Assembly: GCA_030619825.1 (NCBI GenBank) | Contig: JAUXAS010000001.1 | Coordinates: 10,141 to 74,140 of the forward strand | DNA length: 64,000 nt | DNA from: Hadesarchaea archaeon | Lineage (GTDB): Archaea; Hadarchaeota; Hadarchaeia; Hadarchaeales; Hadarchaeaceae | Direction of reading: 5' to 3' | In this document: piece after piece, positions 45,074-57,014 of the stretch | Layout: each line of letters starts with the position of its first letter | How positions within the stretch are numbered: position 1 is the stretch's first letter | Notes under the pieces: generated by a model | Told to the model about the DNA's origin: nothing | Database searches by the model: none | The model's input: only the letters and a program-made list of their open reading frames with translations | Translations under genes and position numbers: made by a program

Positions 45074-45732
45074 TTGGGTAAAAAGACCACCATCGAAATT
45101 TTGGTCTTGTTGGCCAAGGGCGGGGCACATCTTCACGACTTGAAACTTTCTTTGGGCTGGCTTGCAGGTCAACTAAATCTCTCACGACAGACTGCGGCGC
45201 GGCGGCTTCTTGAGCTTGAGGACCAAGGTCTGATTAAACGGGCGGTGGGGCCCCGCGGTCAGAGCGTGCGTATAACACCTGGGGGTCTAGCGACTTTGCG
45301 CTTAATGCATCGAGAGCTCAAGGCGATTTTTCGATTGAAACCGCGTTCGTTCAAGTTAGCTGGCCGGATAATCTCAGGTGTGGGTGAGGGTAGTTATTAC
45401 ATGAGCCAGCGAGGCTACCGAGAGCAGTTCAAACGCGAGCTCGGTTTTGGCCCCTACCCCGGGACGCTCGACATCAAGCTTGACGAGGCATCGCTCGAGC
45501 TCAGGGAGGTGCTCATGCAGCTTCCCGGCAGGAAGGTCGAGGGCTTTAAGACTAGTGAGCGAACCTTTGGCCCAGTGAAATTCTTCCCAGCCAAGTTAAA
45601 GGACAAGAAAGTTGCCCTGATTTTGCCACTTCGGGGTCATTACGCTGATGTCGTTGAGCTCATAGCGCCGAAGAAACTGCGCAAGAGCTTAAAGCTTGAG
45701 GACGGCGATGCAGTTCAAGTGGAGGTAGTGGT

Positions 45733-45736
<4 letters not shown>
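45074..45736 (+). CDS. ribK: CTP-dependent riboflavin kinase (archaeal RibK) with N-terminal wHTH
   Basis: wHTH N-terminus plus MJ0056-type kinase core (GFGPYPGTLDIKL, FFPAKL); heads the riboflavin cluster. Confidence 0.8.
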
Positions 45737-46879
<1,143 letters not shown>

Positions 46880-48966: not shown

Positions 48967-49008
48967 AGTATCGTAAACACTTAATTTGGGCAGGCGATAT
49001 ATTCGTTC

Positions 49009-49125
49009 GGGCCCGTGGCTCAGTCTGGTAGGTGCCAGGGCGACTTGGCAGCCAAAAGCGCTCGACGGTAAAACCGGGCGAAGCTCTTAACCGAGCAGTC
49101 GAGGGTTCGAATCCCTCCGGGCCCG
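49009..49125 (+). tRNA. tRNA-Lys(CUU) with two predicted non-canonical introns (about 25 nt after position 22 and about 18 nt after position 30)
   Basis: Acceptor GGGCCCG/CGGGCCC and T arm GAGGG-TTCGAAT-CCCTC are intact. Joining exons GGGCCCGTGGCTCAGTCTGGTAG | AGCG CTCG | GCTCTTAACCGAGCAGTCGAGGG… gives a perfect 74-nt cloverleaf with anticodon loop CUCUUAA. Intron 1 contains a CCAGG-GCGA-CTTGG GNRA hairpin. Upstream is a TTAATTT/GATATATT TATA-like region. Confidence 0.6.
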
Positions 49126-49188
49126 CTACTCAAAGACCGAAAAACTTCGTATTTTAAAAAGTTGAAAAACGATAATGCACCGAGTCGA

Positions 49189-50235
49189 ATGACTTGGGAA
49201 ACCCTATTAGATCAGTATACCGAACTCATCGACCGCAAGATGAAGGAGCACCTTAAATCACTGAAGGCGAAGGCAGCGAAATATCACCCATTCATGCTGA
49301 AGACATATGAAAACCTTGAGGAATACGTGCTCCGAAGGGGAAAAAGGTTGGCTTCGTGTAGCACCCTCCTAACCTACAAGGGTTATACGGGCGAGGTGGA
49401 CGAGAAAATCCTCAACGTTTGTGTAGGCATAGAGCTTTTCAGGCATTGCATTCTGCTCCATGACGACTTGGTCGATGGGGATGAGATCCGAAGGGGCGGG
49501 AAATCCTTCCACAAGCTCTTTTCGGAGGGCCACGATTCGAAGTTTGGAGAGGGCATTGCCGTCTTCATGGGCGATGCATCGTATGCGCTCTCGCTCGATG
49601 TCATCTTGAACTCGGGATTCAGCGGGGAGGTGCTGCATCGGGCGGTTGAATTGCTTGCCGAGGATTATCGCGGGGTGAACGAAAGCCAAGTCATCGATCT
49701 TCTTTTCGAGCACAAGGAGCCAGATGTCGAGGAATGGTACGTCATGGCATCTAGGAGGGCGGCATCTTTGTTTAGGGCCACGATTTTGATGGGCGCCATT
49801 CTAGCTGGTGCTCCGGAAGAGGATTTGCAGGCTTTGGAGGGGGTCGCGACAAATATCGGCTACGCATTCGACATCCAAGACGACATCATAGATACCTTCG
49901 CAACCGAGCAGCAGTACGGCCGACCGCCAGGCAGGGATATCGCTAGAGGTAAGAAGCCCCTTCACTTGATATACGCACTTCGGCTAGCGGAACCCAATGA
50001 GCTGAGGGTAATCAATGGCATAATCGGAGGGGGCAGGATAACTCCAAATGATCTAGAAACGATGCGTGAGGTGATAAGGAAAACAGGGGCTCTGGATGCC
50101 GCGAAGGAGGAGTCCTCAAAACACGCGAAGAAGGCAAAAGAGTTGATCGAGCAAACGCGAATGGGGGAAGAAAGTAAGGAGTTCTTTAACTCTTTCATCG
50201 ATTACATTACCCAAAGCTTAGACTGGTACAAGTAG
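49189..50235 (+). CDS. idsA: polyprenyl diphosphate synthase (geranylgeranyl diphosphate synthase-like)
   Basis: FARM LLHDDLVDGDEIRRG and SARM FDIQDDIID motifs; the MTWETL ATG is preferred over the annotated 49162. Confidence 0.8.
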   Translation: MTWETLLDQYTELIDRKMKEHLKSLKAKAAKYHPFMLKTYENLEEYVLRRGKRLASCSTLLTYKGYTGEVDEKILNVCVGIELFRHCILLHDDLVDGDEIRRGGKSFHKLFSEGHDSKFGEGIAVFMGDASYALSLDVILNSGFSGEVLHRAVELLAEDYRGVNESQVIDLLFEHKEPDVEEWYVMASRRAASLFRATILMGAILAGAPEEDLQALEGVATNIGYAFDIQDDIIDTFATEQQYGRPPGRDIARGKKPLHLIYALRLAEPNELRVINGIIGGGRITPNDLETMREVIRKTGALDAAKEESSKHAKKAKELIEQTRMGEESKEFFNSFIDYITQSLDWYK

Positions 50236-50242
50236 GCAAGGT

Positions 50243-52048
50243 TTACGCATACCTGCTCAAGCCGAGTTCCTTGAGCTTTTGGGGGGTAGGTTTGCCATCC
50301 TTCCACCCGCGCAGGGCGTAGTACTCGTCGAGCATCGCTCCCAGCTTAACCACGTGACCTTTAGATGGGCCATCGGGCATCGGTTCCTCGAGCAAACGCT
50401 TGGGTAGCGTGTCGTCCTTGCGGCCAAAGCCCTCGCGGCTGATGAAGAGCCGCTCGAGGGTGTAGATGCGATCACCGGTCTTCAACAGCTCATCGGGCGA
50501 CCACCCCCACCCGGTTATCGCGTTGAGCATCTCCACAATTTCAGGCACCCAGATGGCGAAGGTTGCAAAATTACAAAAGACGGCCGAGTCACAGATGGCG
50601 AATAAGTCTTGAAGCTTTTTCACCCACTGCGCCTTCCCTTCAGTGGCGAAGCGATTGAGCTGCTGGGGCACGCCGAAGATTTCTGGACCAATCATGCAGG
50701 CTCCGAGGTGGCAGCCGCCGCGATTTGAGGTCGCGTACGCCAGCCCCTGCCCTTGGGCACCCCGCGGATCATAGGCAGGGAGCTCAAGTCCCTTCACGTG
50801 CATCGCCAGCTCAGGGGCGCCGTATTTCTCCGCAAGGCGTTTCGCCCCGAGCGCGATGTCGTTTCCGAATCCCAGGCGATAGGCCGTCCGCCAGGTGAGC
50901 TCGACGATCGCTTGTGGGTTGCCGAACTTCAGTTCAAGCCCACCCAGCTTTTCCTTCGAGATCTTTCCGCGCTCGCTGAGCTCCATCGCGCAGCCCACAG
51001 TGTTACCATAGGAGAGGGGGTCAATGCCCAGCTCGTCGCAGAGGTTGTTGGCCTTGGCTATGGCATTCAGGTCATCGATGTAGCACTGGGCTCCTAGCGC
51101 CCAGATCTCCTCGTACTCGGGTCCCTCACCCTCAACCTGATAGGGCGATTGGGTAACGCGAATTACGCGGCTACAATCGATCGGGCATCCCCAGCATCCC
51201 TTGCTCTTTATCAATATTGTCTTCGCAAGGGTTTCACCGCTGATTTTTTCCGCGGTCGGGAAAACGCCCGTTTGGAAGTTTCGAGTGGGAAAGAGGCCGT
51301 GCTCGTTGATGGAGCCTACCGCGATGGCCGTGCCGTAGGTGGGCAGGTCGTGTCCAGTGATTCGGCTCTCCTTCAACATCTTTAACGCATTCTGGACGGC
51401 TTCTTTGAGTTTCTTCTCGTCCGCAACGGGTGGTCTTTTAGTTCCCCGCACGACGATTGCCTTGAGCCGTTTCGACCCCATCACGGCTCCAGCCGCGGTC
51501 CTGCCGGCTGCGCGATGTTTGTCGTTGATGATTGCGGCGCATGACACGAGGTTTTCCCCCGCAGGGCCGATCGAGGCAATCTTGATGTCAGGGCCCCCGA
51601 GTTCCTTGCGGATGCCGTCCTCGGTGTCCCAAGTGCTCTTGCCCCAGTACCGCCCGGCAGGTCGGATCTCCGCCTCTCCCTCGCGTATCCACAGGTAAAC
51701 TGGCTCAGCTGCCTTTCCCTCGATGATTACACCATCATAGCCCGCAAACCTGAGCTCCGGGCCGAAGGTGCCGCCGCAGTCGGTTTCCCCGATGCCACCA
51801 GTTTGGGGTGACTTGGTGATGACGTGAAACATACTGCTCATTGGGAACGCTGTTCCGGTAGCTGGACCCGTCATGAAGAGTAGCTTGTTTTCGGGTCCAA
51901 GGGGATCAGTGCCGGGTTTGAGTTCTTCGATGATGATTTTTACTCCCAAACCGCGACCGCCGATGAATAATTTAACCTCGTCCTCATCCACGAACTCGTC
52001 CCGCATCGAGCCGGAGGAGAGATCGGCGCGCAAGAGCTTCAGCTTCAA
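50243..52048 (-). CDS. aor: tungsten-containing aldehyde:ferredoxin oxidoreductase (AOR family)
   Basis: ~600 aa; N-terminal AOR_N domain and [4Fe-4S]/pterin-binding regions characteristic of AOR. Confidence 0.9.
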   Translation of the reverse strand: MKLKLLRADLSSGSMRDEFVDEDEVKLFIGGRGLGVKIIIEELKPGTDPLGPENKLLFMTGPATGTAFPMSSMFHVITKSPQTGGIGETDCGGTFGPELRFAGYDGVIIEGKAAEPVYLWIREGEAEIRPAGRYWGKSTWDTEDGIRKELGGPDIKIASIGPAGENLVSCAAIINDKHRAAGRTAAGAVMGSKRLKAIVVRGTKRPPVADEKKLKEAVQNALKMLKESRITGHDLPTYGTAIAVGSINEHGLFPTRNFQTGVFPTAEKISGETLAKTILIKSKGCWGCPIDCSRVIRVTQSPYQVEGEGPEYEEIWALGAQCYIDDLNAIAKANNLCDELGIDPLSYGNTVGCAMELSERGKISKEKLGGLELKFGNPQAIVELTWRTAYRLGFGNDIALGAKRLAEKYGAPELAMHVKGLELPAYDPRGAQGQGLAYATSNRGGCHLGACMIGPEIFGVPQQLNRFATEGKAQWVKKLQDLFAICDSAVFCNFATFAIWVPEIVEMLNAITGWGWSPDELLKTGDRIYTLERLFISREGFGRKDDTLPKRLLEEPMPDGPSKGHVVKLGAMLDEYYALRGWKDGKPTPQKLKELGLSRYA

Positions 52049-55451: not shown

Positions 55452-56168
55452 CTAACTGACCCTATATTCCGCGCTCATCCTCCAACTCCCAGAAATCCCC
55501 CTGCTAAGCCGCTCATAGATGCCAGGCACGTGCCCAGCGCCCACCACGCATGCCACTTTGCCGGTGCTCGCGGACAGGAGCATCGCAACCCTCGAGGCCA
55601 TGTAGGCATCACGCTCCCTGATCAACACCTGGTAGGCGGTCGGTGAGGCCAGCTTCAGTTCGTGCAGCAAGTAAGTGACGATTTGGTCGTCGGTGAGCCG
55701 CTCAAGCTCCACGCGCTTTCCAAATGGAAGGAGGCCCAGCAGGAGCTCCGCGACCAGCCTGAGCCTTTCCCACCAGGGCATGCGATCGATGAGCCGTTGT
55801 AAAGTTATGCTGATGTCTCGGTCGATCAGCTCCACCCGTGCGCCGATCTTCTGAGCTTGCCTGATCGCGACCAACATCTCCTCTCCCGCCGGCATACCCG
55901 TCTGCCGCGAGAACTTTTTCTGGAGGAGGTAGAGCAGGCTGTTGAGCAGTGATAGTTTGACCCCCCCGGCGCGCATGACTTCAAGTATGCTCGGTCGTTT
56001 GAGGCCACGGGTGAGCGCTAGGTAGCGAGTGGGACATAGTTCAACAGCGACGATATCAGGTTTCTCCTCCGCGATGACGTGTCCGACTTCCACCGTGCTC
56101 TTCGGCAGCACGTGTGCGACGCCTATGAGGAAGAGACGGTCATCCAGCTTTTTTAGCACCCTTTCCAC
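55452..56168 (-). CDS. TraB/PrgY family protein
   Basis: LIGVAHVLPKS N-terminal motif and the GAGH region of the TraB family. Start placed at the internal GTG so the overlap with the upstream reductase gene is only ~28 nt; the annotated TTG at 56270 overlaps 130 nt. Confidence 0.6.
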   Translation of the reverse strand: MERVLKKLDDRLFLIGVAHVLPKSTVEVGHVIAEEKPDIVAVELCPTRYLALTRGLKRPSILEVMRAGGVKLSLLNSLLYLLQKKFSRQTGMPAGEEMLVAIRQAQKIGARVELIDRDISITLQRLIDRMPWWERLRLVAELLLGLLPFGKRVELERLTDDQIVTYLLHELKLASPTAYQVLIRERDAYMASRVAMLLSASTGKVACVVGAGHVPGIYERLSRGISGSWRMSAEYRVS

Positions 56169-56817
56169 CCTTAACCTGGTAGGTGAGGAGGAGGTTTTTA
56201 CCAACTTTTGTGACCTTCTTGAGTTCGAGTCCAACTCCCCTTCGGACCTCGCCAAAACCCGCGCCGCCAACTAATGTTTTCGCCGTGGTCCCACCCACTA
56301 TTCGCGGGGCTACTGCCACCCGAACTTCATCGACCAAACCTTTATTGAGCATGCTCCAGTTGAGGGTCGAGCCGCCCTCGAGCAGGAGCTTGCGCACTCC
56401 CGCCGAGCGAAGTTTTTCGAGCAGCCTGTGCAGGTTCACCTCCTTTTCACCAGCGACGATGATCTTCGCGCCTGTCGCGCACAGCTTCTGTAGCCTTCGC
56501 TTCGAGGCGTTTTTAGTCGAAGCGATAACCGTAGGGGCTGAGTTGTCGAGGACCTTGGCGTCTAGAGGAGTTTTGGCGAAGCTGTCGATGACGACCCTTG
56601 TGGGGCTCTTGCCTCGCGCCCGTCGCACGGTCAGCGATGGGTTGTCGGCCAGTACCGTGCCAACGCCCACCATAACAGCATCGACGCTTGCACGGAGCTT
56701 GTGGACGCGGTCGAGGTCGGCCTCGCACGAGATTCGGCTGTCACCGGCAATGGTCGCGATCTTGCCGTCGAGCGTCATCGCGGCGTTGAGGATCACGTAG
56801 GGACGGGTCATCGGCAT
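56140..56817 (-). CDS. ribD: diaminohydroxyphosphoribosylaminopyrimidine reductase (RibD C-terminal domain type; archaeal riboflavin pathway)
   Basis: RPYVILNAAMTLDGKIA and GGSTLNWSML DHFR-like reductase motifs. Confidence 0.8.
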   Translation of the reverse strand: MPMTRPYVILNAAMTLDGKIATIAGDSRISCEADLDRVHKLRASVDAVMVGVGTVLADNPSLTVRRARGKSPTRVVIDSFAKTPLDAKVLDNSAPTVIASTKNASKRRLQKLCATGAKIIVAGEKEVNLHRLLEKLRSAGVRKLLLEGGSTLNWSMLNKGLVDEVRVAVAPRIVGGTTAKTLVGGAGFGEVRRGVGLELKKVTKVGKNLLLTYQVKGGKGAKKAG

Positions 56818-56864: not shown

Positions 56865-56956
56865 GGGCCAGGGCCGGGATTTGAACCCGACTCACGGGAT
56901 ATCTGCGAGAGGACTCGCCACAGTCCCGGATGTTAACCAGACTACACTACCCTGGC
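56865..56956 (-). tRNA. tRNA-His(GUG) with encoded G-1 and a 17-nt intron at 37/38
   Basis: Minus-strand cloverleaf: G-1 + GCCAGGG acceptor, D arm GUGU/ACAU, anticodon stem CGGGA/UCCCG, loop CU-GUG-G[intron CGAGTCCTCTCGCAGAT]A, T arm UCGGG-UUCAAAU-CCCGG, discriminator C. Confidence 0.75.
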
Positions 56957-57014
56957 CACATCTAAAAATTAGTGAGGCTTGTATTTAGGCTTGCTTTGTC
57001 GCGAGGTCCGGCGT

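Follow-up and report, generated by a model that had tools for sequence, protein, structure and literature searches.

A predicted tRNA-Lys(CUU) gene with two non-canonical bulge-helix-bulge introns beside dph5 in Hadarchaeota

Positions 49009-49125 (+) of the window, the whole 64,000-nt stretch of DNA analysed here, very probably represent a functional tRNA-Lys(CUU) gene of Hadarchaeota (Hadesarchaea), predicted to be split by two bulge-helix-bulge (BHB) introns of 25 nt (at 22/23) and 18 nt (at 30/31). As read from the sequence, the gene is 117 nt in length and runs in the order exon 1, intron 1, exon 2, intron 2, exon 3 (Table 1). Exon 1 comprises the 5' strand of the acceptor, U8 and G9, the 5' strand of the D stem (GCTC), a 9-nt D-loop with G18 and G19, and finally G22; it ends at this position because the D-loop has a nucleotide 17a (standard tRNA numbering). 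Exon 2 contains the 3' strand of the D stem, G26 and the initial four nucleotides of the anticodon stem. Exon 3 contains G31, the anticodon loop CUCUUAA (anticodon CUU), the 3' strand of the anticodon stem and the variable loop CAGUC; its 3' part is made up of the T arm (GAGGG-UUCGAAU-CCCUC), the 3' strand of the acceptor and the discriminator G73. CCA is absent from the gene sequence. On neither strand is the gene overlapped by an open reading frame (ORF) of at least 90 aa. A C/D-box guide RNA within the introns was considered and dropped: at 25 and 18 nt the introns are too short, and C and D boxes are not visible.

Table 1. Coordinates of the tRNA-Lys(CUU) gene, its predicted BHB motifs and adjacent putative signals in the window.
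Feature	Position	Strand	Sequence and description
Putative BRE/TATA element	48975-48988	+	AAACACTTAATTTG; AT-rich box AAACACTTAATTT = 48975-48987; ~21-34 nt before mature 5' end
Second AT-rich box	48996-49003		GATATATT; conserved, in the 42-nt dph5-tRNA spacer 48967-49008
Exon 1	49009-49031	+	GGGCCCGTGGCTCAGTCTGGTAG; tRNA positions 1-22
Intron 1	49032-49056	+	GTGCCAGGGCGACTTGGCAGCCAAA; 25 nt, between tRNA positions 22/23, D-stem
Exon 2	49057-49064	+	AGCGCTCG; 8 nt, tRNA positions 23-30
Intron 2	49065-49082	+	ACGGTAAAACCGGGCGAA; 18 nt, between tRNA positions 30/31, anticodon stem
Exon 3	49083-49125	+	GCTCTTAACCGAGCAGTCGAGGGTTCGAATCCCTCCGGGCCCG; 43 nt, tRNA positions 31-73
Intron 1 BHB, H	49026-49029 : 49051-49054	+	TGGT (D-loop) : GCCA (intron), 4/4 pairs
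Intron 1 BHB, 3-nt bulges	49030-49032 and 49055-49057	+
Intron 1 BHB, h'	49033-49039 : 49044-49050	+	7 bp
Intron 2 BHB, H	49059-49062 : 49077-49080	+	CGCT (positions 25-28) : GGCG, 4/4 pairs
Intron 2 BHB, bulges	49063-49065 and 49081-49083	+
Intron 2 BHB, h'	49066-49069 : 49073-49076	+	4 bp, AAA triloop
Intron 2 BHB, h	49057-49058 : 49084-49085	+	2 bp; 4 bp after intron 1 removal
T-run	49152-49155	+	TTTT, 27 nt past the tRNA; possible archaeal termination signal, suggested by the sequence

Removal of both introns in silico gives a 74-nt product whose minimum free energy (MFE) structure, at -38.6 kcal/mol, is a cloverleaf with a 7-bp acceptor, a 4-bp D stem, a 5-bp anticodon stem, a 5-bp T stem and a 7-nt anticodon loop with U33. 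The conserved tertiary nucleotides are complete in the exons (U8, A14, G15:C48, G18 G19, A21, U33 and A37), and the T54, Psi55, C56 and A58 positions are conserved in the T-loop UUCGAAU of exon 3. ARAGORN identifies the spliced 74-mer as tRNA-Lys(ctt), a call that persists to 125% of the default score threshold. The unspliced gene is missed by default ARAGORN, and Rfam at the gathering threshold returns no match to it or to anywhere else in the whole window; at E<=10, the unspliced sequence yields T-arm fragments only, matching unrelated families. A score below the RF00005 gathering threshold is expected for the unspliced gene given its two introns. Orthologs with a single intron (only 37/38 or only 30/31) are detected as Rfam tRNA RF00005 at 52.8-61.1 bits, against a cut-off of 29. 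A loose filter for a 7-bp acceptor and a T arm within 260 nt produced two real matches versus a mean of 0.93 in 30 dinucleotide shuffles; as this is not significant alone, the filter was left out of the evidence, and significance derives from the complete cloverleaf, the two exact BHB motifs and the 32 orthologous loci with the same exons.

In archaeal EndA substrates, a 4-bp central helix (H) lies between two 3-nt bulges, each of which is cleaved 3' of its second nucleotide. This rule was used here and reproduces both proposed junctions to the base (Table 1; motif nomenclature after PMC4090602). The outer helix (h) of intron 1 is 1 bp, which corresponds to the relaxed HBh' form and not to the strict hBHBh' form. 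The same 1-bp h is found in all 19 loci carrying the 22/23 intron (the window and 18 others), such that the relaxed motif is conserved. Intron 2 has a minimal BHB in which h and h' are each at least 2 bp; when intron 1 is removed in silico, its outer helix is A21 G22 A23 G24 : C32 U33 C34 U35. All pairs fixed by the position of the junctions are formed: 9/9 for intron 1 (counting five of its seven h' pairs) and 10/10 for intron 2, with chance probabilities of ~1e-4 and ~5e-5, respectively, at ~0.375 per random pair.

The RNAfold MFE structure of the 117-nt precursor (shuffle z-score -2.4) includes the acceptor stem, the T arm and the exact H, bulges and h' of intron 1. The H of intron 2 is also formed, but a competing 6-bp helix (51-56:67-72, precursor numbering) replaces its h', and the intron 2 BHB is therefore not part of the MFE structure. 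A model built by hand with both BHBs has an energy of -32.2 kcal/mol versus -53.6 kcal/mol for the MFE, i.e. 21 kcal/mol higher. For the BHBs of the precursor, thermodynamic folding is ranked secondary to the comparative evidence.

For this comparison, loci around relatives of Dph5 (diphthine synthase) were taken from genomes and metagenomes (L001-L012, L046 and L049-L071), and intron sites were located by spliced alignment to the mature sequence, with the junctions refined by the BHB rule. In 32 Hadarchaeota loci, a tRNA-Lys(CUU) gene is found upstream of diphthine synthase and in divergent orientation to it, and exon 1 is identical or near-identical across these orthologs; in some cases a genome locus and a metagenome locus represent a single contig, as with L004 and L057. 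Four intron sites (9/10, 22/23, 30/31 and 37/38) are occupied in 12 combinations, and the largest number in one gene is three (L051, L062, L064, L066 and L067); an intron-free tRNA-Lys(CUU) gene is found at the dph5 locus in 0/32. H is complete (4/4) in all 35 of the introns at 9/10, 22/23 and 30/31. L049, with 98% Dph5 identity, has an identical 117-nt gene with the same 22/23 and 30/31 architecture. This architecture is shared by L050 (95% Dph5 identity), which differs solely at one pair in the h' of intron 2, where T-A is replaced by C-G in a compensatory manner.

Other orthologs are missing one of the introns at the exact junction: intron 1 in L010, L012, L046, L009 and others (the first three, for example, read ...GGT(T)AGAGC...), and intron 2 in L002, L006, L008, L001 and others (the first three, for example, read ...TCGGCTCTTAA...). 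Both junctions are confirmed to the base by these orthologs, as each reads uninterrupted exon where the intron would be. The preliminary description of this locus, in which a tRNA-Lys(CUU) needing two non-canonical introns after positions 22 and 30 was proposed, was thus correct to the base, as judged by both the BHBs and the orthologs that lack intron 1 or intron 2. The inserts that it placed in the D-stem (~25 nt) and anticodon stem (~18 nt) are 25 and 18 nt in length and leave a cloverleaf once removed, and the acceptor, D-loop, T-arm and CUCUUAA anticodon loop that it listed are all borne out in the spliced 74-mer. The BHB motifs that it suggested looking for are present at both junctions, with H 4/4 in each, a relaxed HBh' form for intron 1 and an h and h' of at least 2 bp for intron 2.

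The introns also covary. In the h' of the 22/23 intron (13 distinct sequences), each of the first three pairs occurs as 2-3 standard types, with the first pair being TA in eight sequences and CG in five. Of the seven distinct sequences of the 30/31 intron, three have G26:C and four have A26:T as the second H pair, which is covariation between exon and intron. As a separate observation, the 30/31 intron of L012 (ACGGCTTTGCCGGGCGAA) and many 37/38 introns (ACGGCTTTCAAAGCTGG..., L004/L005/L068) have the same first eight bases, ACGGCTTT; this shared start could reflect chance, BHB constraint or a relationship between the introns.

Standard tools give no call for 49009-49125, a result that would also fit a decaying tRNA pseudogene in which the two inserts are random, unspliced insertions and the gene is out of use. 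This explanation is highly unlikely: the exons are intact and keep every conserved tertiary nucleotide, the inserts hold exact BHB geometry with compensatory substitutions across species, and synteny and conservation of the locus extend over 32 Hadarchaeota assemblies. Because none of the 32 loci is intron-free, interrupted genes appear to be the working state in this clade.

A second alternative retains a two-intron tRNA-Lys but shifts the cut register of intron 2 by one nucleotide (precursor 57/74 instead of 56/75), giving a 76-nt product. This register was found by a scan of the precursor for BHB-like geometry (H 4/4, h' 3, h 3), but it places two additional nucleotides in the anticodon stem, with loss of the cloverleaf. 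Orthologs without intron 2 read ...TCG/GCTCTTAA... (the slash marks the junction) exactly as 56/75 predicts, and 7/7 distinct 30/31 introns fit 56/75, with bulges CGA and AAG, leaving the shifted register exceedingly improbable. The single-intron alternative of equal or better score envisaged in the preliminary description does not materialize, and its one candidate, a tRNA-Arg(GCG) gene with a long variable arm and one 34-nt intron within the anticodon (34/35), can virtually be dismissed: although it is the sole ARAGORN -i solution for the unspliced sequence at the default and 105% thresholds, it drops out at 110% whereas the tRNA-Lys model holds to 125%, its anticodon loop (GGGCGAA) lacks U33, its 14-nt variable region is unpaired, its D stem includes a G:U pair, its intron lacks an h' and forms none (0/4) of the central BHB pairs, and it is not formable by orthologs that lack intron 1 or intron 2, all orthologs giving tRNA-Lys(CUU).

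The two-intron tRNA-Lys(CUU) gene is divergent from dph5 (diphthine synthase, PF00590; 48190-48966, -), the start codon of which is 42 nt away. Downstream are a polyprenyl synthetase ORF (49162-50235, +; probable ATG at 49189) and, beyond it, a gene for a tungsten-type aldehyde:ferredoxin oxidoreductase (50243-52048). Riboflavin-pathway genes flank the region (45074-46416 and 56140-56817), encoding a CTP-dependent riboflavin kinase with an N-terminal HTH, a DHBP synthase and a RibD C-terminal domain protein; these genes and the aldehyde:ferredoxin oxidoreductase are ordinary archaeal content.

Dph5 homologs with 74-98% identity are all from Hadesarchaea/Hadarchaeota where named (DG-33, DG-33-1, CSMAG_1323, CSMAG_1321, CSMAG_1141, Hadarchaeum and Hodarchaeaceae), and those of Bathyarchaeia are next at no more than 54%, indicating that the window is from Hadarchaeota, a euryarchaeal-like lineage. 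Of the lineage hint in the preliminary description, the euryarchaeal-like context agrees with these Hadarchaeota relatives, but the pointer to Thermoproteales/Korarchaeota does not, as the best Dph5 relatives are, where named, from Hadesarchaea/Hadarchaeota. Increased tRNA disruption is already published for Hadesarchaea (PMC5829648), so the gene is informative, yet is no pointer to Thermoproteales or Korarchaeota.

Both AT-rich boxes in the spacer between dph5 and the tRNA gene (Table 1) are conserved in the Hadarchaeota orthologs (L001-L012). Judged by position, they may have a promoter role, as they are spaced as would be expected of a pair of interleaved divergent TATA boxes, with one predicted ~25 nt before the 5' end of the tRNA and the other ~27-35 nt before the dph5 ATG. 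This spacing would give nearly leaderless transcripts for both tRNA-Lys and dph5.

A T-arm/acceptor scan of the 64 kb identified two tRNA candidates only (Lys and His), both with introns. The second, at 56865-56957 (-) of the window, is a tRNA-His(GUG) gene in which G-1 is encoded and a 17-nt intron occupies the canonical 37/38 site, where a full hBHBh' motif is formed (H 4/4, h 5 bp, h' 3 bp). This gene is mislabelled 'tRNA-??? (tggc)' by default ARAGORN.

In the proposed splicing pathway, EndA would cut the ~117-nt tRNA-Lys precursor at four bulge sites, generating 2',3'-cyclic phosphate and 5'-OH ends, and RtcB would ligate the three exons. CCA would be added post-transcriptionally, as it is not encoded. 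Because the h of intron 1 is only 1 bp (relaxed HBh'), an endonuclease with broadened specificity would be needed. Without intron 1, the h of intron 2 lengthens from 2 to 4 bp, suggesting that removal of intron 1 first would be favoured but probably not obligatory. Order-dependent BHB formation is described for other archaeal multi-intron tRNAs (PMC8450103). For Hadesarchaea archaeon YNP_N21, tRNA genes have been predicted and an α4 EndA with an L3 loop has been linked to increased tRNA disruption (Kaneta et al. 2018, PMC5829648). The same α4 and L3-loop type may be present in the genome studied here, by analogy with that different Hadesarchaea MAG (PMC5829648). A tblastn search of the 64-kb window with an approximate M. 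jannaschii EndA query gave no significant match.

The divergent pair of dph5 and tRNA-Lys(CUU) is common to Hadarchaeota, Bathyarchaeia and Culexmicrobium (Culexarchaeia) (L013-L045 versus L001-L012). Among the methanogen, Thermoplasmatota, DPANN and Asgard loci fetched, ARAGORN detected no tRNA beside dph5; this absence is tentative because ARAGORN can miss interrupted genes. The 18-nt format of the 30/31 intron (A, 4 bp, triloop, 4 bp, 4-nt H strand, AA) is the same in Hadarchaeota and several Bathyarchaeia loci, and introns at 30/31, 17-30 nt in length, are also present in other Bathyarchaeia loci and in Culexarchaeia.

The Bathyarchaeia-type tRNA-Lys(CUU) genes that were parsed (L019-L022, L028, L100 and L114) contain four BHB introns, each with H 4/4, at ~17/17a in the D-loop, 30/31, 37/38 and 51/52. 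With these introns removed, the 74-nt product is tRNA-Lys(ctt) by ARAGORN. Eight other genes of ~150 nt (L101, L115, L117, L118, L120, L121, L123 and L126) are near-identical to the parsed genes in length and exon sequence, and the four-intron junctions are supported by relatives that have three introns, one or none (L084, L085, L092, L015, L017 and L016). One of the parsed loci, L019 (DATKOK010000044.1), is labelled 'Candidatus Methylomirabilota bacterium' and carries an archaeal diphthine synthase beside the four-intron archaeal tRNA-Lys; mis-binning of a contig from Bathyarchaeia probably explains this label. The maximum number of introns per tRNA gene is given as three in reviews (PMC4033280 and PMC8450103). 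In the literature searched, we found no tRNA genes with four introns, no combinatorial intron polymorphism at this one orthologous locus and no description of 30/31 (and 22/23) introns common to Hadarchaeota, Bathyarchaeia and Culexarchaeia in the dph5-linked gene.

Multiple-intron tRNA genes have been reported from Thermoproteales (Sugahara et al. 2008; reviews PMC4033280 and PMC4090602). As in the Hadarchaeota gene, two or three short introns with BHB or relaxed BHB motifs occur at non-canonical positions of one tRNA gene in Thermoproteales, splicing is by EndA and a ligase, and intron content varies among related genomes. tRNAs containing several BHB introns at non-canonical sites are well documented in both Thermoproteales and Thaumarchaeota (PMC4033280, PMC4090602 and PMC8450103). 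The endonucleases differ, however: Thermoproteota have an (αβ)2 EndA with a crenarchaeal L1 loop, whereas the Hadesarchaea enzyme is α4 with an L3 loop, according to PMC5829648. YNP_N21 (Kaneta et al. 2018, PMC5829648) belongs to the same candidate phylum as the organism studied here but is a different genome, and the available parts of that paper do not include population-level variation of the kind found here (12 architectures).

Methanopyrus kandleri resembles the present case in its euryarchaeal-type context and in having tRNA introns outside 37/38; it differs in that its EndA is an (αβ)2 heterotetramer without a specificity loop and with constrained specificity, whereas intron 1 here is of the relaxed HBh' form (PMC5829648 for the M. 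kandleri data). The nuclear tRNA genes of Cyanidioschyzon merolae also contain introns in the D-stem and elsewhere with BHB or relaxed BHB motifs, and the order of their removal has been shown experimentally to depend on BHB stability, paralleling the order suggested here, with intron 1 first (PMC3728597). In contrast, C. merolae is eukaryotic, its endonuclease complex is different, and its tRNA genes have up to three introns and include permuted genes (PMC3728597).

Since multi-intron tRNAs and the disruption of Hadesarchaea tRNA genes are already known, the gene itself is an expected instance of a known phenomenon. Its identification is a useful annotation fix: default ARAGORN and Rfam both miss the gene, and on their results the genome would seem to be without tRNA-Lys(CUU). 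From a relaxed HBh' intron that is conserved outside the TACK archaea, a splicing endonuclease of broad specificity is predicted, and the HBh' intron described here supports the published link between the L3-loop α4 EndA and tRNA disruption in Hadesarchaea. To our knowledge, the α4-type EndA class has long been believed to cut strict BHBs only. We suggest, tentatively, that the dph5-linked tRNA-Lys(CUU) locus could document, in nature, how BHB introns are gained and lost, with at least 12 architectures built from four sites among loci whose Dph5 is 64-98% identical to that of the window, in which the 30/31 intron, and perhaps the 22/23 intron, would be either older than the phylum split or horizontally mobile, and in Hadarchaeota would be processed by an α4-type EndA. 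The 12 architectures and the four-intron Bathyarchaeia genes provide 'snapshots' of how tRNA introns are gained and lost, for which reviewers in this field have called (PMC4033280), making this locus a moderately interesting entry to tRNA-intron dynamics outside the TACK archaea.
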